Assembly: GCA_951406725.2 (NCBI GenBank)
Contig: OX597828.1
Coordinates: forward strand, 60,822,001-60,886,000
From: Octopus vulgaris
Taxonomy: Eukaryota
Length of the DNA stretch: 64,000 bases
Direction of reading: 5' to 3'
The notes below the pieces were generated by a model. That model had not been told where the DNA came from. It ran no database searches and saw only the letters and a program-made list of their open reading frames with translations. Shown here in pieces: positions 1 to 59,567 of the stretch; position 1 is the first letter of the stretch; each line of letters starts with the position of its first letter. Both the position numbers and the translations under genes were made by a program.

Positions 1-476
1 CCGGTTTGTTAAAATACTTCGGATATCATCTGAAGAGCAAGATGGGGTTGGAGAAGAGGAGCCTGCCACAGAAAGAGTATATGGAACGTTGGAAGGATGT
101 GATGAGGAAGGTGGGTGAGAGTAACCCAGCTTAATCATCGAGGAAAGGAAAAGTCAGCTGCTGGGATTTATAGGCTGCCGGGTTCAAAATTGAAACTGGT
201 ACCTCCCATTCCTTTTCACTGTACATAACTGTGTAAAATAAAGAAATTAAAAAAAAAAGAAAACATACGCACTAAAAGTTCTCGTGATAAAGGTAAAAGT
301 AAGCCAAGGTTTCGTTTCAAGGCAAAGTAAGCCAAGTTTTCGTTCAAGTTACATAAAATTTTATTTTTGTAAATTTTTATAATTTCATTCGAACTCGCAT
401 AGCATTTTTGTAATTGTTTTGTCCTGTAATGTCCCAATTCTATGTTAGATCACTTGATCATAATAAAGATAAATTC
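1..476 (+). mobile_element. 3' end of a Tx1-clade (L1) non-LTR retrotransposon: ORF2 C-terminus to TAA at ~134, then 3' UTR
   Basis: 1-134 encodes ...FGYHLKSKMGLEKRSLPQKEYMERWKDVMRKVGESNPA*, paralogous to the ORF2 end at 4957-5073. The 3' UTR shares blocks with 5090-5130 and 5262-5312. AATAAA occurs at 237 and 462. Confidence 0.85.
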
Positions 477-722
477 ATCGAAAACCGGTGTTTTGACTCG
501 TCTAGGGACCCCTCTTTCATCTGCGTATTGAGAAGTTAGCTGCCTATTTTGTTGAGTGAGTTCGTTTTTTGTTCGTCGTCGTTTGTGTTTGCTCGTGAAT
601 TGAACAGTTATCCGTTGTGTGACAGTAATTTTTGCCCTACAGGGCTGAAAATTCTGTGTATAAACATTGTTATTACCTTCGGGGTAATTTTTTTTGAAAA
701 ATTGGTTCTCATAATTTGAGAA

Positions 723-2160
723 ATGGAGTTCGACTTGGCGTCGAGGAGCGACTTTCCCGTGATGGGAAAAGGCGAACAGAAGGATATCGAGGTTAGAAAA
801 CAGTCTTTTTCGGCCGCAGTGGGCGGAACCGTAACGGAAGTGGAATTCAAAATAGAACAGTTGTTCGAATACCGGAACTTGGTCAAAAAGGAAGGCAACG
901 AAATAAAACTGGTACCGCCGCAAGCGATATTACAGGAAATAAAGGCCAAGACAGTTGTATACAAGGTTTACAGTAACAAAGAGAAAAAAATAATGGACGT
1001 GAAGAACGAAATAGTAGAGAAGTGCTTGTCCCCGGTGTGGAACAAAATTCGCTACGTCGGTCGAGGTGCCCGCAGCGCTACCGTTGAAGCACATTTCGAC
1101 TCGGCTGATGTGGCAAGAGAGATTTCATCGATGACCTTAAAAAGTGAGGACATCATGTTACTACCTACCTATATGGGAAAAAGAACTGCGAAACTATATG
1201 TGGAAGACTTTCCAAGAGGATATGATATAATGTGGGTAGCAGCGGCGGTTCTGCACGACGTAGAGCAGAAAGTCTCAATTCTGCAGATGAAAAGGAAAGA
1301 GGAGGTAAACTGGAAGGGACAAGCGCTCGACTCCTCGTTCAAGCAGAAAATAATGTGCTAGAAAACTTACCCGATAGGGTATTTATTGAGGAGGGAATTA
1401 CAATCAGAGTGTCAGTGGAGGGGCGCAGACTTAGGTGTTTCAAATGTGGTGAAAAGGGTCACGTCCGCTCGAACTGCATAAAAAAAAAAGAAAAACAGCG
1501 AAGCCCCTCCTCAAAGTGCTTCAAACACAGAAAAAGAAAAGGCGGAAAAAGACCCCAAGACTGCGACAAGGAAGGGAATCGAAACGGAAGATAAACATGA
1601 ACAAATGGAATTTACACAGGTGACACACAAAAAGAAAAAAGAAAATACCCTGGACTCCCCTCCCCAAACAAAGAAAAAAATCAGCAAACACCGCAGAGAT
1701 ACATACAAAACAAATTCCCCAGCCCTACCCCCACGGCACTGTATTCATTGGAACACAGTTCGCCAAGCCCCTCCCCATAAAACAAGATTGGAAAAAATTG
1801 ATTAAAAAAAATGAAAAGATTGTAGCATTCGACGAGAGGAACGATAGAGTGTTTAAGTATTTAAAATTTTCAAAACTGAAATTATTCCGTAAGTCTGCAG
1901 ACACTAAGTCGACGACTCGTTTTGCAAAAATAAAGGAAGACGAGTGGAAGGAAAAAACACTCCAAGAACATTTAAAAATTAACCTTATCAGAGACGTAAC
2001 TAACGAAATACTGGAGGGCAAACTTACTATAACCCCGGCAACCACACCTACCCAGAGCCCGTTGGCAACGCCGGTTAAGAGCCCTGCAGCTACGACCACA
2101 AGGGAGGAAGAAGGGGAAGCATGCAGATTTAAACTGTCATGCTCCCTGTCCCAACCGTAA
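723..2160 (+). pseudogene. Tx1 ORF1 (gag-like nucleic-acid-binding protein), frameshifted
   Basis: ORF pieces 723-1361, 1232-1594, 1605-1805 and 1798-2160; zinc knuckle CFKCGEKGHVRSNC followed by a Lys-rich region. Confidence 0.8.
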
Positions 2161-2186
2161 GTTTATTTTTTTTTCTCTCTCCGACA

Positions 2187-5073
2187 ATGGCAAAGCTGGG
2201 TTGTGTGAATGTGCGTGGAATGGGGTCGAAATGGAAACAAATTTGTCTCCTGAACGACCTCACGACACACAGAGTGGACGTAGCTATTGTAACCGAGTCC
2301 AAGATGAACGGGAACCAAGCGTTCTCGCCTCTTCTAAATGGTTTCGAGAAATTTATTTCTCCTAGCCGAGGAGGAGGAAGGGGCGTGGCAGTCCTTATCA
2401 GGAAGAGCTTGGACTTGCAGGTAAGTACTGTCTTTCTGGACCCAGAAGGCAGGCTGGTCGTTCTGGATGTGACCCACGTAAGTAAACAGTCCTTCAGGTT
2501 GGTAGCTGTCTACGCTCCGAATGAGTGTAGGCAGTCGGGTTTTTTTCGGAATCTGGAGCACTTTTTAGTGACGTCGAAAACGGTAGACTTAGTAGGGGAC
2601 TTTAACACTGTCCTCGAAGCGCGGGTCGACAGTGTTGGCTCAACCAATAGGAAGGGGAACCCTAGCCTCAAGGGTCTACTAGAGAGCTTTGATCTAGTAG
2701 ACCTTAACTCCAAACACGAAGGTTGCAGAGTTAGAGCTAAGCTACGCGCAGGGAAACGAGAAGGTATTAACGTTGCCGGATGGGCCCGTCGAGTTGAGAG
2801 TCAGAGAGGTAACAAAGCTTCAATCAAGTCTTTAACTGACGAACAGGGACACAAGATCTATGGACAGGAGGAGATGCAAAAGTTTCTTCACCAGCATTTC
2901 GCCCGCGCGTTCGGGGGGGGGGGGGGTTCGCTGGAGCGGGGGAGGGCCTTAAAGGACTTCCTAGCCGGCGGACCGCGGCTCTCGGGGCGGGAGGTGGAAT
3001 GCTGTGAAGGAGCGATCACTCCCGCGGAGATAGAGGGGGTACTGGCCGGATGCGCCGGGGAGAAGTCGCCGGGGTAGGATGGTCTACCCTACGAGTTTTA
3101 TCAAAGTATGCCGGACTTGTTCGGGGGAATACTGGCAGGCGTCTACGCGAACTGGCAGCAGAACGGGAGAATTCCCAGTTCTGTAAGCCGGGGAGTGGTG
3201 ACGCTAATCCAGAAAGAGCCGAGCAAGGGGGATAACATTAGTAATTACAGGCCCATAACTCTACTTAATGTAGAGTTAAAGATTTTGGCCAAGGTGTTGG
3301 CAAAAAGGTTGACGACTGTCGTGGAGAAACTTGTAGGGAAAGCACAGACATGTGCAATTCCAGGCAGGTCGATCCAGGACAATCTTCACCTTATACGCTA
3401 CACCTTAGATAGGGTGGGTAAATTAACCGGCAAGGGCGGGTTAATGGTCCATTTAGACCAAAGTAAAGCGTTCGATAGGGTAGACCATAAGTACCTGGCG
3501 ACGGTCCTCGAAGCGGCTGGACTGGGCCCTGAATTTCGCGGGTGGATCTCCGCTATGTATAGCGGCATCAAGTCCACCGTCCAGATAAACGGTTACCTAA
3601 CGGAACCGTTTTCGGTCGAATGTTCAGTTCGTCAAGTGTGCCCCTTGTCACCACTTTTGTACGTGTTGGTTCTCGAGCCATTGCTGCGAAAGTTGGAGAG
3701 GCTGGGAAATAACCCGGATGAGATCGGAGGCGGGAGGACGGTTCTGCTTATGCGGATGACGTCACCCTCATCGTGTCCAATGAGGCTCAGCTACCTTGTG
3801 TAGAAGATGCTATCAGAGGATACGAGGCGGTGGCAGGAGCAAAAGTTAACAAGGACAAGTCGATTGGCTTACGCCTCGGCACCTGGAGGAGCAAGTCGAT
3901 ATCGTCCAGTGCCGTGGACACTGGACAGATGGTCCTGTTAAGTTGCTGGGAGTTTGGTTTGGGCCAGACTCCCAAACGGAGAGGAATTGGAGTGAGGTGA
4001 CGGGCAAGGTGGAGGCCATAGTACAGACCTGGTCCGGAAGGTTTCTGTCCTTGAAAGGAAGGGCGGAAGTGGTACAGATGTTTATTGCATCTGTAATCAC
4101 ATACCGCCTGACCGTTGTCCCTTGCCCCGATTCATGGCTTAGCAAGATGGAGCGAATCCTTTTCCGCCTTTTGTGAAAGGGAGGAAAGCCACTTGTGAGG
4201 CGCTCCGTTTGATGCCAGGAACCGTTAAAGGGTGGGTTAGGAATGCCTTGGTTGATGATGCGCAGACATGCGTTGAGGCTGAAGCATCTCTGGCACCACC
4301 TGGAGGGTGATAAGGTGTGGAGTCCGCTGGCAGGGGAATTTTCCCCGAGACCGGCTTCCTTAGTGAATTTTAAACCCGGTTGCATCAAAAGACGGAATCT
4401 GACTTTATGGCAAAAGGAGTGCCGACAGGCACTCACGCTGATCCACAAGGCGGGCAAGGCCGGCTGCGGAAATACCACCTCGGTATTTTATAGCAGGCTG
4501 GTAGAGGCAAAGAACGACGACGTCCTAGGAGGAGCTCTGGGGTTCGACGAGGACCAGCTTACCAACCTGTTTAAAAAGACTTTCAGGACGGGGTATTTGG
4601 ATAATTTCCAAAGATCCCTGGCCTGGCAGTGCTATAGGAATGCTTTACCTGTTCGCGAGAAGTTATCGCGGCACGGAACTTCAGTGCCACCGACATGTCC
4701 AAGATGCGGGTTGGACGATGAAACCGTCCAGCACGCTTTTGTACACTGTCGGCAGTTGTCAGACTTGATAAGTTACGCAGAACACGTGTTATCGCATCTG
4801 GGACGAGTACAGATGATACCGCCAACTGGACTCTCGAAGGAAGGTGAGGCATGTTTTCACTGCACGATTGCAGTAGTAAAAGAATGCATGTGGCGTACAA
4901 GAATGGAAGGAGTCGCAATAGGATCCTTTGTCTCAGGCCCCGGCTTGCTCACTTACTTCAGATATCATCTGAAGAGCAAAATGGGGCTGGAAAAGAAGAC
5001 CTTACCACGAGGTGTGTATGAAAAAAGATGGAAGGAAGAGGCGAAAAAGGTGGGTGTCAGAAACCCAGTTTAA
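2187..5073 (+). pseudogene. Tx1 ORF2 (APE endonuclease, reverse transcriptase, C-terminal Zn finger), with stops, frameshifts and an internal deletion
   Basis: APE motifs NVRG, VYAPN, GDFN; RT motifs KSPG*DGLP, NYRPITLLN, LDQSKAFDRVDH, SVRQVCPLSP and AYADD (after a frameshift at ~3745); GGLGMP; CPRCGLDDETVQHAFVHC. Confidence 0.9.
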
Positions 5074-5335
5074 CTATGGATGGAGAAGAGGAAAGGAAAG
5101 CTGCTGGGCCTTATAGGTTGCCGGGGTTTAAAATATATCGGTAAGATTTCAATCTAATGTAATGTTATATTAGTCAATGCAAAGGACAATTTAAATACAG
5201 TTTTTTGTATAATGAATTGTGGAAATTTTTAAACGAACCACTTGACTGTTTTTTGTATGTATGTCCTGTATTGTTCTTCTATGTACTGATTTTATAATCG
5301 TAATAAAGAATTAATCGTGAACCGGTGGTTACCGC

Positions 5336-5374
5336 CCGTTGATAAGAGGCAATAACCTCGAAACCGCGGTCCGG
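5336..5374 (+). ncRNA. Type I hammerhead ribozyme motif, U3-A8 core variant, palindromic helix III
   Basis: ccg|TTGATAA|gagg-caataa-cctc|GAAA|ccgcgg|TC|cgg. Helices I, II and III all pair; predicted cleavage after C5371. Confidence 0.75.
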
Positions 5375-5536
5375 TGCGTATCACTTAGGCTTACGAGAAA
5401 GGGATGGCCTCCCTTTGCAAATACCATAAGGGCACAGATAGTGTACCTAAAGCCAGCTGGAGACGATGATCTCCTGGGGCTAGAAAGCTGCAGTAACAGC
5501 CCCCTTTGTGGTTAGCCATATTGAGATGGCTATTAT

Positions 5537-5607
<71 letters not shown>

Positions 5608-5656
5608 TATAATAATATATAGTAATAATAATAATAGATAAAAAAAAAGACGAAAA

Positions 5657-5819
5657 CAAAGGACCACTGATGCGGTCACAGGAGTGTGACGAAAGAACTC
5701 TGGCCGAAATAAGATTAAGATTAATGTAAAAAATAAATTACACTGAAGCAAAATAACACCAAATATATAGTGCGTGTGTTTTTATTGGCTAAACTGGCAA
5801 AATGACCATTCCGAAATAT

Positions 5820-11577: not shown

Positions 11578-13925
11578 GTGTGTGTGTTAGCGTGTGTGTG
11601 TTGTGTGTGTATACATACATACACACATACATGCATGCATGCGCGTGCGCACACATACATACCTACATACATACACGCACAAACACTTACACACATACAC
11701 ACATACATACACACATACACACACATACATACCTACACACATACACACTTACACCCACACATACACACACACATACATACATACACAAGACATACATACA
11801 TACAGATATACACCCATACATACACACACATATACATACATACATGCACACACACATACATACATACATTATGCCCATACAACTCCAGAGGAAACCCCAC
11901 GCACACACGCATACATTCACACACACACACACATACGTACACACACATACATACATACATTCACACTTTCATTCATACTTTCATTCATACATACATACAT
12001 ACATACATACATACACACACAAACATACACATACACACACACATACATACATACACACATACATACACACATATATACACACACGCATACACACATACAT
12101 ACACACACACATACTTACACACACATACATACACACACACATATCCGCACATACACATATACATACACACATGCATACACACACACATACATACGCACAT
12201 ACATGCATACATACATACACACACATACACACATATACGCATGCACACATACATACACGCATACACACACATACATACCTATACACATACACACATACAC
12301 ACACACATACACACACATACATACATACACAAGACATGCATACATACAGACATACACCCATACACTCACACATACATACACACACACACACACATACACA
12401 TACACACGCACACATACACACACACACGCGCATACATACATACATTACGCCCACACAACTCCAGAGGAAACCCCACGCACTCACGCATACATTCACTCAC
12501 ACACACACATACGTACATACACATACATACATACATTCATACTTTCATTCATACATACATACACACACACACAAACATACACATACACACACATACATAC
12601 ACACATACATATATACACACACGCATACACACACATACATACACACACACATACATACACACACACATACACACACATATACGCACATACACATATACAT
12701 ACACACATGCATACACACACATACATACGCACATGCATGCATACATACATACACACACACACATACACACATACACGCATGCACACATACATACAAACAC
12801 ACAGACATACACGCATGCACACATACATACATACACACACATACATACATACATACACACACACACTTACACACATACACACATACATATACACATACAC
12901 ACATACACACACACATACATACATACATGCACACATACATACACGCACGCACACATACACACATACACATATACACACACATACTTACATACACTCATAC
13001 GGACATACATATACACAGACATACACACATACACACTCAAACATACATACATACATACATACACACACACATACCTACATACACACTCGCATGCACACGC
13101 ACACACATGCATGCCCGCGCGCACGCACACATACATACATGCAGGCACGCATGCCTGTGGGGTCTGGCTTTATTTCGGGCGTACGTCTGGGCGTGTGCGT
13201 GTGTGCCTGTAGATTCGCATGCGCCCGCACCGCGAGAGTTTTTTTCCATCAATCTTTCAGTTGCGAAGTGTGTCCTTGCATGCATATATATACACACATA
13301 TAAACACACATATAAACCCCTACATTTGTACACACACGCACATACATACATACATACATACATTCACTCCCACGCACGTACACACACATTTACATATATA
13401 TACAATACACGCACACACACATACACACGTACAATCACACTAATTCACATACACACCGACACATATACATACACACAACATATACCTCCACGCGCACGCA
13501 CACATACACATACGTACACACATATAACCACAGACACACACATACATACGCACACCAAAACATGCGCACACATACGCACGCACACGCGCAAAAAGAAACT
13601 CACAACCCCAAGGATACACGCATATACATCCATTTACGCTTACACACACACACACATACAAACGCACACACACACGCACACACAACTACACGTACATACA
13701 TACACAGGCACACGCACACACACACAAATGAACCCACACATACATACACGCACACAATCATACATACGTATATATACACTCACACGCACGTACAAGCACA
13801 CACGCACACATACACTAAGTTAAGCACAGTTACTCGCCATACACACAAGAAAACGCACACGTACACGCACACATACTACAACAAAACACAAACACGATAC
13901 ATATACACGCACACACACATACCTC
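11540..13925. repeat. 2.4-kb cryptic (CA/CATA)n low-complexity tract with an internal ~550-580-bp duplication and a unique island at 13130-13290
   Basis: Marker cattaygcccayacaactccagaggaaaccccacgcac occurs at 11867-11904 and 12443-12480. Confidence 0.85.
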
Positions 13926-36356: not shown

Positions 36357-36815
36357 CCTACACATACACACATACATACATACAAATATACATATACATA
36401 TATATATATATACAATCCAATACAGGCCCATTCCCTAATTTTAATTTTATTATCTTCATTTATTACTTTTGTTATCTTTGATCGCTAGGGCTAAGAATCC
36501 TGGCAATGGCTGCATGTCCATTTGTCTGTCTACTAGAAGGCAAGTACTCATTCCCGCACGCACACTCATTAGCACGTACATTCACCCATTCGTACACTCA
36601 TACACATACACGTACGCACGCGTTATATTCATACATACAATCATCTACATACGTTCACGTATATACACATACGTACTCGTACCTACAGATTCGTGTCTAC
36701 ACTTTAGGAGGCTAGTCTATACATATACACCAATAAATATACATATATATATATATACCCGCATGTACATACACACACACACATATATACTCCTACATAC
36801 AGATACATACCTATA

Positions 36816-36863
<48 letters not shown>

Positions 36864-37355
36864 CATACACATACACACATACATATACACACACATACAT
36901 ACACATATATATACATACACAAACATATATACACACATATATATATACATACACACATACACACATACATACGTATACATACATACATACATCCATACAT
37001 CCATACTTACATGCATTTATACGCATACACACACCCATCTATATATATGTATATATATATATATATATATATACACACTCACACATACATATACAAATCT
37101 ACGCACACACATACATACATACACGTATACGCATACACGCACATACACATATACATGCGTACCCATACACGTGCACACACGCACGCGCATCCATATATAT
37201 ACACACACACACATATATATACACGTGTGCAAGCATACATACATACTCATACGCGCACACATACTTACAAATACATATATGCACACACTTACACACATAT
37301 ATATACATACACATATACATGCATACATACATATATGCATACATACACACACGCA

Positions 37356-37403
<48 letters not shown>

Positions 37404-37464
37404 TATACATATATAGATATACATACACATACATACACATACACATACATACACACATATACAC

Positions 37465-37501
<37 letters not shown>

Positions 37502-37706
37502 TACATATATACACATATACATACATATACATACACACACACATACATATATACATATACACTGATACACATACCCATACATACACATGCATATACTTAT
37601 ATCACTACATACTCACATATATAAACATATATACATATACACACATACATATATACATGTACATACACATACGTATGCATATATACATATATACATATAT
37701 ATACAC

Positions 37707-37743
<37 letters not shown>

Positions 37744-38153
37744 TACATATACACATATACATGTATACATACGCAAAAATGATACACATATATACACATA
37801 CACACACACAGACAGATGCATATACATACATATATATATATAAACTACATATCTATATAAATACATACATAATACACATATACACACACATATATATACA
37901 TTCATGCATATACATATACAAGTATACATACACATACACATACATACACATGTGTGTATGTATGTGTATGTATACTTGTATATGTATATGCATGAATGTA
38001 TATATATGTGTGTGTATATGTGTATTATGTATGTATTTATATAGATATGTAGTTTATATATATATATGTATGTATATGCATCTGTCTGTGTGTGTGTATG
38101 TGTATATATGTGTATCATTTTTGCGTATGTATACATGTATATGTGTATATGTA

Positions 38154-38188
<35 letters not shown>

Positions 38189-38498
38189 GTGTATATATAT
38201 GTATATATGTATATATATATGTATGTGTATGTACATGTATGTATATATGTATGTGTGTATATGTATATATGTTTATATATGTGAGTATGTAGTGATATAA
38301 GTATATGCATGTGTATGTATGGGTATGTGTATCAGTGTATATGTATATATGTATGTGTGTGTGTATGTATATGTATGTATATGTGTATATATGTATGTGT
38401 ATATGTGTATATATATATATATATGTATATGTTATATGTGTGTATGTATGTGTATGTGTATGTATGTGTATGTATATCTATATATGTATATATATGTG

Positions 38499-38533
<35 letters not shown>

Positions 38534-39028
38534 TGCGTGTGTGTATGCATGCATATATGTATGTATGCATGTATATGTGTATGTATATATATGTGTGTAA
38601 GTGTGTGCATATATGTATTTGTAAGTATGTGTGCGCGTATGAGTATGTATGTATGCTTGCACACGTGTATATATATATGTGTGTGTGTGTGTATATATAT
38701 GGATGCGCGTGCGTGTGTGCACGTGTATGGGTACGCATGTATATGTGTATGTGCGTGTATGCGTATACGTGTATGTATGTATGTGTGTGCGTAGATTTGT
38801 ATATGTATGTGTGAGTGTGTTATATATATATATATATATATACATATATATAGATGGGTGTGTGTATGCGTATAAATGCATGTAAGTATGGATGTATGGA
38901 TGTATGTATGTATGTATACGTATGTATGTGTGTATGTGTGTATGTATATATATATGTGTGTATATATGTTTGTGTATGTATATATATGTGTATGTATGTG
39001 TGTGTATATGTATGTGTGTATGTGTATG

Positions 39029-39078
<50 letters not shown>

Positions 39079-39541
39079 TATAGGTATGTATCTGTATGTA
39101 GGAGTATATATGTGTGTGTGTGTATGTACATGCAGTATATATATATATATATGTATATTTATTGGTGTATATGTATAGACTAGCCTCCTAAAGTGTGAGA
39201 CACGAATCTGTAGGTACGAGTACGTATGTGTATATACGTGAACGTATGTAGATGATTGTATGTATGAATATAACACGTGCGTACGTGTATGTGTATGAGT
39301 GTACGAATGGGTGAATGTACGTGCTAATGAGTGTGCGTGCGGGAATGAGTACTTGCCTTCTAGTAGACAGACAAATGGACATGCAGCCATTGCCAGGATT
39401 CTTAGCCCTAGCGATCAAAGATAACAAAAGTAATAAATGAAGATAATAAAATTAAAATTAGGGAATGGGCCTGTATTGGATTGTATATATATATATATAT
39501 GTATATGTATATTTGTATGTATGTATGTGTGTATGTGTAGG

Positions 39542-53024: not shown

Positions 53025-53510
53025 CACTCCTCCTCCTCCTCTCCTCCTCCTCCCACCTCCTTCTCTTCTCCTCCTTCTCTTCTCCTTCTCCCCATCTCCT
53101 CCCCTCCTCCTCCCCATCTCCTCCTCCTCCTCCTCCCCTCCTCCTCCTCCATCTCCCCTCCTCCTCCTCCACTCATCCTCCTCACACATCCTCACACATT
53201 CTCACACATCCTCCTCCTCCTCCTCCTCCTCCTCCTCCTCCTCCTCCTCCTCACACATCCTCCTCCTCCTTCTCCCATCCTCCTCCTTCTCCCATCCTCC
53301 TCCTTCTCCCATCCTCCTCCTTCTCCCATCCTCCACCTCCCCTCCTCCCTCCCACCTCCCACCTCCCCTCCTCCCACATCTCCCTCCTCCCACATCTCCC
53401 TCCTCCTCCCACCTCTCCCATCCTCCCCCTCCTCCTCCCACCCCTCCCTCCTCCTCCCACATCTCCCTCCTCTTCCCACCTCTCCCTCCTCCCACATCTC
53501 CCTCCTCACG
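53025..53510. repeat. (CCT)n/CCCATCT-rich polypyrimidine low-complexity tract
   Basis: Direct reading. Confidence 0.9.
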
Positions 53511-57129: not shown

Positions 57130-59567
57130 AATACAATATAAAAAAATCTAATGGAATTAACAATACAAAGACAATACAAATGAAGCGATGATCAGGCCAC
57201 GCTCCGACCCCACAATCCCCGATCTACCGCTGGTACCTTTTTCTTCCTTTTTTTCCCCGTCTGTTCAAACGGTTCCTTGCACGCACAACACTCGTGCAAC
57301 ATGCTTCCATCTCTTTTGGAACGTACACTCTTCTCCAGCCACAGCTTCCTTTTAAAATGAAAAGAAAAAAAAATGATCGTAAATTGTGGCCATAGATAAA
57401 GTTGCCTGACTTAATTCCTTTTATCCTAGTCTTCCATACTGCCTCTTTTGCTATTGCTACAACTGTGAGAAAACAATTCTTACCTTCGTTCGTTAAAACT
57501 CCCGGTGGGTCAATTTTTATAATTGACTCAGTCGACAGCTGTACTCTTCCTTCGCCGGACAACAGGTGTTCAGCATAAGCCCACATTTCAGTTTTCTCCG
57601 TACACTAAACAATAGCGTGAGGGACGGTTTCCCCCACACACCTTGGACAGGTCGGCGACTGACGCTTACCGTGTCTTGCGAGCTTATCCCAAACGGGCAA
57701 GATACCTCTGCCGCATTGCCAGGTTAAGGAGTTTCGGAAGTTGTCCAACGTTCTCAACCCGAATGTACGGTGAAACAGGCTGTCCAGTTGAATAAATCCG
57801 AGACCTAGTGTCGCCCCCAAGCCATCGTCGCATTCAGACTCTACCAACCCACTATATAAAATCCATGTGGACACCCACCACTGGCGTTGCCCGAGCGCCT
57901 GAATAGCAGGAGGGCCTTACGGCACTCTTTACGCCACTCACTCGACCTCGGTCTACGAGAACCCCAGGCTTCCTGTCCGTAAAAAGTTTTGAACTCGGGG
58001 AACATTTGTCTGGCCAGCGGAGACCACACCCGTTCACTATCCAGGAGAATCCAAAGGTGCCTCGACCTCAACGCATGTCTGCGAATCGTTAAACAAGGCA
58101 TCCCTAAACCTCCCTTTAAAAGCTTTCGACAGCAGACAGAGCGTTTCACAATTGGCGACCTGCCCTTCTACATAAAGCGAAAGAGCTGTCTCTCCAACCT
58201 GATCAACCACGAATCCGGACAGGGTACGACGGTCACGCGGTAGGTAATGACCGATGCAATAAACACATTGGCCACCTCCGCCCTCCCCTTCAGGGATAGC
58301 CACCGCCAAGACCAGGTCTTGACTACTGCAGCCACCCTGCTCAATATCTCCGTCAAGTTCTTCTCTATCTGGAGGCCTGGTCCAAACCAAACTCCCAGCA
58401 ACTTAACCAGTCCCTCCGCCCAGCGCCCAACAACGCTTTCCGAAGGCATCGACTTGCCAATCCAGGTTAATCTTTGCTCCTGCCACCTCCTCGTAAGCCA
58501 CAATAGTCTTACCCACTTCACGTTGGCGTGCTACTGAGGTTACGCTGATAGTGATATCATCCGCGTAAGCCGTAACAAACTCCTCTAGACCTGGTTCTCT
58601 CGGGATGCCACTCAACCTTCACAGAAGGGACTCGAGAGCCATCACATACAAAAGTGGTGAGAGCGGACATCCTTGACGAACCGAGCGTTTGATGCAGAAC
58701 GGCTTCGAAAGGAAACCGTTCACCCGAACTATCGAGTCAATGTTGTGTTACAAAGCGATAAACCACCTGAGGAAGCCAAGGCCCAGGTCTAACCGCGCTA
58801 TCACAGTCGCCAGGTATCGATGGTCAACCCTATCAAAAGCTTTAGACTGGTCTAAATGTACCAATGCTCCACCTTTGCCAGATTTATTACCAACCCTCTC
58901 TATGGTATAGCGAATAAGATGGAGGATATCCTGAATGGTTCTGCCTGGGATGGCACATGTTTGTGCCTCCCCGACAATACCATTCGCGACGCGCCAACCT
59001 TTTTGTTAAGACCTTGGACAAAATCTTCACTTCTGCGTTTAACAGAGTGATGGGCCTGAAATTCTCTATAACGTCCCCCTTGTCCGGGTCCTTTCTGACC
59101 AACGTCACTACTCCCCGGCGCACAGATCTGAGGATAAACCAATTCTGTTGCCAGTTCGCATACACGTCAGCCAGTAGTTGCCCGAACAAGTCTGGCATAC
59201 ATTTATACATCTCGTACGGAAGACCATCAAATCCCGGCGACTTACCCGCTTTACAGTCTTCTTATTGGTGTTCGTAACTCTTGGTAATGTTGGAAACTTG
59301 CTTTCCGATAAATCAGAAACGTTGACAAAAATTAAGCTTTCTATTTTCTTTGCTTCTCTTTGAGTTGATGATTTGTCCCCCGACGAAGAACACGAACTTT
59401 TCGGAATCTTGCCGGCAATTAATGTTTTCCCCCACAGGGGAAAACCGCAGATAGCTTTCGAACGAAAACTATACTACAATTTTTCAACAATAAGTCCAAC
59501 AATAGGCACAACAAGAGATATAACAATTAACAGAAACTTACGAACACACTCCAACAATAAATTTTCA
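57130..59567 (-). mobile_element. Second Tx1-clade LINE family: ORF2 RT/C-terminus (57260-59255), probably joined to its 5' UTR (59256-59567) by a large deletion
   Basis: GKSPGFDGLPYE, NFRPITLLN, LDQSKAFDRVDH, SVRQGCPLSP, AYADD, LSLKGRAEV, GGLGMP, CPRC. The 59400-59567 minus strand weakly resembles the 5' UTR at 590-775. Confidence 0.82.

Follow-up and report, generated by a model that had tools for sequence, protein, structure and literature searches.

Evidence for Serial Insertion of Two Tx1-Like LINE Copies into One 14-bp Site at the Edge of the Hammerhead in a Retrozyme-like Repeat of Octopus vulgaris

Two LINE Copies Occupy a Single Repeat Unit

A 64,000-nucleotide stretch of the Octopus vulgaris genome (contig OX597828.1, positions 60,822,001 to 60,886,000 of the forward strand; hereafter, the window) contains two Tx1-like long interspersed nuclear elements (LINEs), both decayed, which lie head-to-tail within one unit of a repeat bearing a predicted hammerhead ribozyme. 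In our judgment it is quite probable that the two copies entered, one after the other, a single 14-bp site that marks the hammerhead's 5' edge, that their family is site-specific, and that the site is the predicted first transcribed base (+1) of a small nuclear RNA (snRNA)-type promoter, which the LINE likely borrows. Throughout, L-numbered loci are other places fetched from the same genome, and the junction samples are the best-scoring matches of each search, not a census.

An earlier note on the window had described two diverged copies in tandem, neither with poly(A) and each followed by the same 14-mer (12 of 14 bases identical), and this description holds. Copy 1 extends to position 476 and copy 2 from 491 to 5313; each tail ends in ...AATAAAG(A)..., with the AATAAA 6-9 bases before the 3' end, and then runs directly into its 14-mer, which in both cases reads as reported. 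The 14-mer is present three times: to the left of copy 1, upstream of the window (L031:5002-5015), and at 477-490 and 5314-5327. The left and middle copies are identical, and the right one differs from them at two of 14 positions. The left half of the target, which the earlier note had proposed to seek upstream, lies directly before copy 1, where the left arm of the repeat and ATCGAAAACCGGTG abut the 5' end of the LINE (L031:5016). Because left arm and 14-mer run straight into copy 1, one repeat unit was hit twice, and the order of the locus is left arm, 14-mer, copy 1, 14-mer, copy 2, 14-mer, hammerhead, and the rest of the repeat.

1 to 476, plus strand: LINE copy 1, 3' end (C terminus of open reading frame [ORF] 2 and 3' untranslated region [UTR]); AATAAA at 462-467
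477 to 490, plus strand: middle copy of the target-site duplication, ATCGAAAACCGGTG, same as the left copy
491 to 5313, plus strand: LINE copy 2, full length, decayed; 29 further full-length 5' ends match that of this copy
5314 to 5327, plus strand: right copy of the target-site duplication, ATCGTGAACCGGTG; its last four bases open the outer part of helix I of the hammerhead

The 14-mer is a target-site duplication, not the terminus of the element. Among 14 other elements for which both ends are known, the paired 14-mers were identical in nine and differed by one mismatch in three, and two elements had duplications of 16-17 bp instead of 14. Rare variants, such as ATCGAAGACCGGTG and ATCAAAAACCGGTG, recurred on both sides of the same element, and a 5'-truncated copy (L007) had the left arm and ATCGTGATCCAGTGA on one side and ATTGTGATCCAGTGA followed by the hammerhead on the other. 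The possibility left by the earlier note, that the 14-mer is simply the end of the element and that unrelated sequence follows it elsewhere, does not apply: the target itself includes the 14-mer, and downstream of other copies lies the same class of repeat.

Copy 2 probably inserted first, and copy 1 would have gone into the left duplicate afterwards: of the three 14-mers, the left one and the middle one agree fully and it is the right one that differs. The identity of relatives elsewhere in the genome (up to 99% for copy 1, 91-97% for copy 2) fits an earlier arrival of copy 2 and a later one of copy 1. At each insertion the apurinic/apyrimidinic endonuclease (APE) would have cut the bottom strand immediately 5' of ATCG and, 14 bases beyond, the top strand.

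The Same Junction Recurs across the Genome

Tails of the copy-2 type (175 candidates, 40 scored, 30 loci) joined the 14-mer site at all 30 of the 30 3' junctions outside the window. In 27 of these a hammerhead repeat of type A, B, or D followed (four with internal deletions), in two a C-type repeat, and in one the 14-mer and another LINE 5' end. A search with the 5' end of the same type (105 candidates, 30 loci) gave left arm plus 14-mer in front of the element in 29 of 29 cases. Tails of the copy-1 type (235 candidates, 30 loci, 28 usable junctions) lay in the hammerhead repeat in 19 cases and in U2 snRNA genes in five. The same junctions are found at dozens of loci, on many chromosomes and in several diverged repeat subfamilies, and this recurrence exceeds chance; the family uses one fixed site and orientation, with a target-site duplication.

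Empty sites were also found. Searching the genome with positions 5290-5540 gave 2579 first-look candidates, with 47 matches among the 40 that were scored, and most matches began at 5311. Twenty-nine repeat copies contained the 14-mer, and 24 of them were uninterrupted across the site (22 with the left arm and two more with a shortened arm); three others had a LINE tail, and two were rearranged or truncated at the site. The repeats downstream of the LINEs were 72-94% alike to the A-type unit and the LINE tails 92-94% alike to copy 2; since the repeats are more diverged than the tails, the repeat was not carried along with the LINE. These empty sites, the left half upstream, the duplication, and the copy-2-type junctions bear out the suggestion of the earlier note that the family targets a hammerhead-bearing repeat.

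The 14-mers of the different targets are ATCGTGATCCGGTG (type A), ATCGAAAACCGGTG (type B), ATCGCGACCTGGTG (type D), ATCGTCAGCTGGCA (type C), and ATCGCTTCTCGGCC (U2), and all share ATCG at positions 1-4 and a pyrimidine followed by GG at 10-12. The left and middle 14-mers of the window have the B-type form, yet the host repeat is of type A; they may have been brought by the leader of the LINE RNA rather than copied from the target. The two copy-2-type LINEs in the C-type repeat, a different repeat that starts with ATCG, are at L035:1411-1500 (minus strand) and L041:1736-1825 (plus strand). By eye, this repeat has a hammerhead-like CCGAUGA...GAAAC...GUC with a palindromic helix I.

The Target Is a Retrozyme-like Repeat

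The interrupted unit belongs to a ~360-bp repeat, measured as ~372 bp at L009:1407-1778, and its left half lies just upstream of the window. Its right part ends in tacttta, next to a (TA)n run, and contains the two hairpins to which the earlier note had drawn attention.

5314 to 5542, plus strand: right part of the interrupted retrozyme-like repeat (unit positions 98 to ~330), 94.9% identical to the uninterrupted copy L009:1501-1735
5398 to 5404 with 5410 to 5416, plus strand: conserved hairpin aaaggga/tcccttt of the repeat
5513 to 5519 with 5526 to 5532, plus strand: 3' terminal hairpin tagccat/atggcta of the repeat

The repeat occurs singly, in tandem (L008, L016), and as inverted pairs (L013, L014), so that a short non-coding unit, a type I hammerhead, and tandem copies, the features of a retrozyme, are found together. 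Each unit starts and ends with the same 15 bases, TCTGAGATTTAATAA (L009:1407-1421 and 1764-1778; also L008 and L016), which makes a single copy a little longer than one period; copying from tandem or circular templates would be expected to leave such a terminal overlap. Many copies carry a 43-base tail beyond tacttta. Just upstream of the interrupted unit are an inverted partial copy with a hammerhead on the minus strand (L031:4455-4710, minus strand) and a partial direct copy (L031:4729-4920, plus strand), and this tandem-plus-inverted layout is the arrangement described for insertions of Penelope-like elements (PLEs).

The earlier note had called the repeat PLE-type. The resemblance stands, and sequence similarity was not found when the repeat was compared by BLAST with 20 GIY-YIG loci including 1.5-kb flanks. 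At eight of these 20 loci, UUGAUAAG...GAAACAUGU, located 0.6-1.3 kb downstream, amounts to a minimal hammerhead that shares its U3-A8 core with the repeat in the window. The genome contains very many GIY-YIG (Penelope-type) frames, including those at L164, L167, L169, L170, L171, L174, and L177, and many have the same 781-amino-acid open frame. Other repeat families share only the final 60-70 bases, i.e., the tagccat/atggcta hairpin and tacttta (L006 at ~579, minus strand; L020 at ~808, L021 at ~1345, and L025 at ~1345, plus strand), and this shared end looks like a common 3' recognition module. Upstream of the partial copy at L021 there was no ORF of at least 70 amino acids.

The Hammerhead Fold Is Supported by Covariation

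When the region 5200-5700 was scanned, the Rfam Hammerhead_HH9 model matched in full at 5321-5394, and the predicted cleavage site is after C5371. The elements of the fold are as follows.

5321 to 5394, plus strand: type I hammerhead, Rfam HH9 full model, 35.1 bits, E 3.3e-7
5324 to 5328 with 5381 to 5385, plus strand: helix I, outer part
5333 to 5338 with 5372 to 5378, plus strand: helix I, inner part
5339 to 5345, plus strand: hammerhead core, U3 to A9
5346 to 5349 with 5356 to 5359, plus strand: helix II
5360 to 5362, plus strand: hammerhead GAA
5363 to 5370, plus strand: helix III, palindrome ACCGCGGU, short (2-3 bp with a palindromic loop)

The core, UUGAUAA...GAAAC...GUC at 5339-5371, is the conserved CUGANGA...GAAA of a type I hammerhead, with a predicted H17 cleavage site, apart from two changes, C3U and G8A, which together preserve pairing. 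This U3-A8 variant occurs naturally in PLE hammerheads (PMC4209133), and type I animal hammerheads with a short palindromic helix III are described there as active only as dimers. A search for data on C3U/G8A mutants found nothing among the papers covered.

We assembled 43 copies of this region from diverged subfamilies, all drawn from the 3' flanks of LINEs; four copies with internal deletions (L039, L047, L049, and L062), the two C-type copies (L035 and L041), and every flank that was not this repeat were set aside. The structure used was derived from the Rfam model on one row, and the rows are related to each other. Over 20 pairs, 93.9% of cells could pair, compared with 29-54% when the partners were slid, and ten of the 20 pairs changed on both sides. 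Compensatory cells numbered 60, compared with 13.1 ± 3.5 in shuffles of these related copies. The 3-8 pair itself was CG in 17 copies, UG in 13, UA in 12, and something else in one. This covariation across diverged copies supports the predicted hammerhead fold. The hammerhead that the earlier note had called well formed is upheld to this extent, by the HH9 match and the covariation; the match falls below the gathering score of the model, and a scan of the whole window with Rfam gave no family at its gathering score.

An snRNA-Type Promoter Is Predicted at the Landing Site

U2 genes without an insert and U1 genes (L124-L141 and L143-L154, respectively) have a box reading ATCAGT(G), placed -57 to -60 relative to their first base, in 16 of 17 and 12 of 12 cases. 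The same box lies at -56 to -60 from the ATCG in 17 of 21 A-type repeat sites, and atcagtg is present in all 29 left arms from diverged subfamilies (L064-L092). A proximal sequence element (PSE) of an snRNA-type promoter would be expected ~55-60 bases upstream of the start and in common with bona fide snRNA genes of the same genome, and the box of the repeat agrees in both respects. Over U1, U2, and the repeat the box reads ATCAGT(G/C), and a TA-rich ATTTGCA stretch, at about -30 to -18, is likewise conserved in the repeat.

Because the spacing of the box is common to U1, U2, and the repeat, the landing site is where an snRNA-type promoter should start transcription. The landing spot is probably the transcription start of the repeat, and the element would then borrow the promoter of the repeat rather than its ribozyme. 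An inserted LINE would sit 15 bases downstream from where a PSE-driven unit starts and would be transcribed from that unit with the 14-mer as a leader, and the hammerhead would be a neighbor of the landing site, not used by the LINE.

A Sister Subfamily Resides in U2 Genes and Carries a Probable Fossil Leader

Four copy-1-type tails, ~94.6% like that of the window, are followed by a U2 snRNA gene from nucleotide 1, with no hammerhead (3' junctions at L114, L115, L117, and L119). The identity of the gene is clear from a match to RF00004 of 184.9 bits that starts at model position 1. Insertions with known 5' junctions in the U2 arrays are at L155:1595, L156:1688, and L157:1620, with a further one at L116, and nucleotides 1-14 of U2 are duplicated around the inserts. 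In three U2-resident copies, and also at L116, the order is U2 promoter, U2 nucleotides 1-14, ATCGCTACGTGGTG, and then the 5' end of the LINE. This inner 14-mer shares nine positions with the first 14 bases of U2 and is one base off ATCGCTACCTGGTG, the 14-mer of D-type retrozymes. LINE copies that have the same tail variant use this D-type 14-mer. None of the 12 U1 loci contained a piece of either LINE subfamily.

An RNA made in the retrozyme would start exactly at ATCG and would carry 14 target bases as its leader, and the leader would have been retained when the lineage moved to U2. Such an RNA would open with the duplicated 14 bases of the former target, so that a move to another target would be recorded as a fossil leader at the 5' end. 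From the box at the insertion point, together with the fossil 14-mer in the U2 copies, we infer that the LINE homes to +1 and is transcribed from the promoter. To the wider proposal, that a LINE lineage seeks out the base at which snRNA-type promoters begin transcription, whichever unit follows (hammerhead retrozymes or U2 genes), lives off these promoters, and carries a fossil leader, we would give even chances.

Architecture of the LINE Copies

Copy 1, which is ~5.46 kb long, is degraded, its coding region split into pieces. In copy 2 the APE, RVT_1, and zf-RVT pieces are interrupted by stops and frameshifts. ORF pieces of both copies match PF03372, PF00078, and PF13966, so that an APE and a reverse transcriptase (RT), both of one ORF2, are recognizable in each. 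The two copies are 81-82% identical over ORF2 and 74% in the tail.

491 to 722, plus strand: copy 2, 5' UTR
723 to 1361, plus strand: copy 2, ORF1 piece
2139 to 3077, plus strand: copy 2, APE piece (Exo_endo_phos), profile match
3108 to 3803, plus strand: copy 2, RT piece (RVT_1), profile match
4243 to 5073, plus strand: copy 2, zf-RVT piece, profile match
5302 to 5307, plus strand: copy 2, AATAAA

Observations That Count against This Account, and Other Explanations

Several results weigh against one part or another of the account given above. For the hammerhead, the HH9 scores of the repeat types (A, 35.1; D, 30.3; B, 18.5 bits) are all below the gathering score of 52, the C-type repeat matched none of the Rfam hammerhead models even with E allowed up to 10, B-type copies have a C/A mismatch at the base of helix II (17 of 43 rows), and the minimum-energy fold of the monomer predicted by ViennaRNA is not the hammerhead (-22.7 vs -13.2 kcal/mol). 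For site specificity, the copy-1-type tails are not strict, as two of 28 had unrelated flanks and two of 28 were followed by what appeared, by eye, to be another LINE 5' end. For the name, no Tx1 reference with a name came up in the protein searches or in an atlas; the nearest named proteins were uncharacterized ones from octopods, cuttlefish, turtles, and lancelet, and the putative membership of the Tx1 clade is argued from architecture and behavior. For transcription, no sequencing run listed for the region is recorded as RNA; four runs (contigs, of a kind that we guessed) over 4900-5545 gave no joints and no pile-ups of starts or ends, and a branch in the assembly graph at this junction would account for the contigs that begin at 5314. 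If the promoter were of the RNA polymerase III kind, the T-runs at the 5' end of the LINE would stop transcription. Finally, the fossil leader is a single ancestral event seen in three descendant copies.

Three other explanations have to be set beside the preferred one. The earlier note had suggested that the ribozyme trims read-through transcripts; spelled out, the hammerhead would cut read-through LINE RNA after C5371 and leave 58 target bases at its 3' end, whose pairing with the nicked target would prime reverse transcription. The LINE is indeed always co-oriented with an intact hammerhead 8 bases past its end, the fold is conserved with compensatory changes, and target-derived 3' extensions aid site-specific elements, an argument made for co-transcription with the target (Kojima 2015, PMC4494074). 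We nevertheless think trimming improbable: no hammerhead follows the sister copies at U2 nucleotide 1, a helix III of 2-3 bp with a palindromic loop is of a kind described as inactive in single copy (PMC4209133), the sense strand of the locus offers a single hammerhead, the fold predicted for the monomer is a different one, and an AATAAA stands close to the end of both LINEs. Trimming at 5371 is unsupported, and nothing observed requires it.

A composite element, with the hammerhead repeat as a 3' module of the LINE itself (or as a short interspersed element sharing its tail) and the 14-mer as its own terminus, was suggested by the first search, where four copies (the window, L002, L004, and L007) had tail plus repeat at 92-94% identity. 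That reading is refuted by the empty sites and the paired duplications and retains next to no probability: the repeat is uninterrupted across the site in most copies that have the 14-mer, every full-length 5' end has the left arm before it, the repeats downstream vary more widely than the LINE tails, and the same 14-mer variants stand on both sides of each element. Targeting by sequence alone, in which the endonuclease would read ATCG(N6)GG-like DNA and the position of the promoter would be a coincidence with no role in LINE transcription, is unlikely in our estimation. The motif common to all targets speaks for it; against it are the position of the U2 site at exactly nucleotide 1, the equal distance of the PSE-like box in U1, U2, and the repeat, and the start of the fossil 14-mer exactly at ATCG. 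Insertion at the predicted start of a promoter that is likely borrowed is retained here as the preferred reading, with the reservations listed above.

Relation to Known Target-Specific Elements

Targets recorded for the Tx1 clade are Tx1D, U2 (Keno), (TC)n, (TTC)n, Mariner-N4_AMi, and long terminal repeat (LTR) retrotransposons (Kojima 2015, PMC4494074). Several of these are themselves mobile elements: Tx1L lies in Tx1D, of piggyBac type, crocodilian Tx1-Mar in Mariner-N4_AMi, and Tx1-8_Crp and Tx1-4_AMi land in LTR retrotransposons (PMC4494074). The octopus family resembles such LINEs in its APE, RT, and C-terminal zinc-binding domain, in the lack of poly(A) at the junction, in its fixed site and orientation within another repeat, and in its target-site duplication and tandem stacks. 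It differs from them in its target, a hammerhead-bearing retrozyme-like repeat, and in its site, the predicted transcription start of that repeat. Our literature search found no report of a hammerhead or retrozyme target for a Tx1-type or other target-specific LINE, and the main texts of PMC7229834 and bioRxiv 10.64898/2026.07.22.740005 do not mention Tx1 or octopus.

U2 snRNA genes are targets of Keno, of the Tx1 clade, and of Utopia, which has a restriction-like endonuclease (PMC4640811), and the copy-1 sister subfamily is like them in inserting into U2 gene arrays. Downstream of Keno and Utopia inserts, U2 continues from nucleotide 39 (PMC4640811), whereas here it continues from nucleotide 1, with nucleotides 1-14 duplicated; the octopus sister subfamily therefore uses a different U2 site. 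Keno was considered as the identity of the family and rejected, the window copies being in the hammerhead repeat and the sister copies abutting U2 nucleotide 1 rather than nucleotide 38/39.

The R2 element has a self-cleaving ribozyme at its 5' end, which belongs to the element and frees its 5' end. In the octopus LINE, by contrast, the ribozyme is part of the target, is located 3' of the element, and is seemingly unused. R2 is co-transcribed with its target, the 28S rRNA genes (PMC4494074). The octopus LINE is like R2 in having no evident promoter of its own and in a reliance on target transcription that we infer, and in both, target sequence in the RNA would help precise integration.

The hammerhead itself is like those of metazoan non-LTR retrozymes and PLEs in its 6-bp helix I, 4-bp helix II, and short palindromic helix III (PMC7229834; PMC4209133; bioRxiv 10.64898/2026.07.22.740005). 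The repeat is further like retrozymes in having a unit a few hundred bp long in tandem and inverted arrangements, and its U3-A8 core is known from PLE hammerheads. The octopus repeat differs in its PSE-like box and in a defined, predicted start that precedes the hammerhead by 8 bases; neither appears in those portions of the retrozyme and PLE sources that were compared. The presence of the box suggests that retrozyme-like repeats of animals can have promoters of the snRNA type, a point that bears on how such ribozyme RNAs are made.

Site-specific LINEs are models for the choice of a safe landing site and starting points for targeted gene insertion, and a repeat with a self-cleaving ribozyme, struck at its predicted transcription start, adds a class of target. 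Relatives at U2 nucleotide 1 that carry a fossil of a former target would be a natural experiment on endonuclease specificity and promoter dependence. If the interpretation is correct, target switching by a site-specific retrotransposon can be read directly from these copies and tested.

Other Features of the Window

A third, distant LINE fragment is present at 57994-59243 on the minus strand, 69% identical to the RT region of copy 2. The window also contains long, impure microsatellite arrays: (ACAT)n over 1.5 kb at 11613-13108, (TACA/ATGT)n over 2.4 kb in mirror orientation at 36718-39177, and (CTC)n at 53027-53492.

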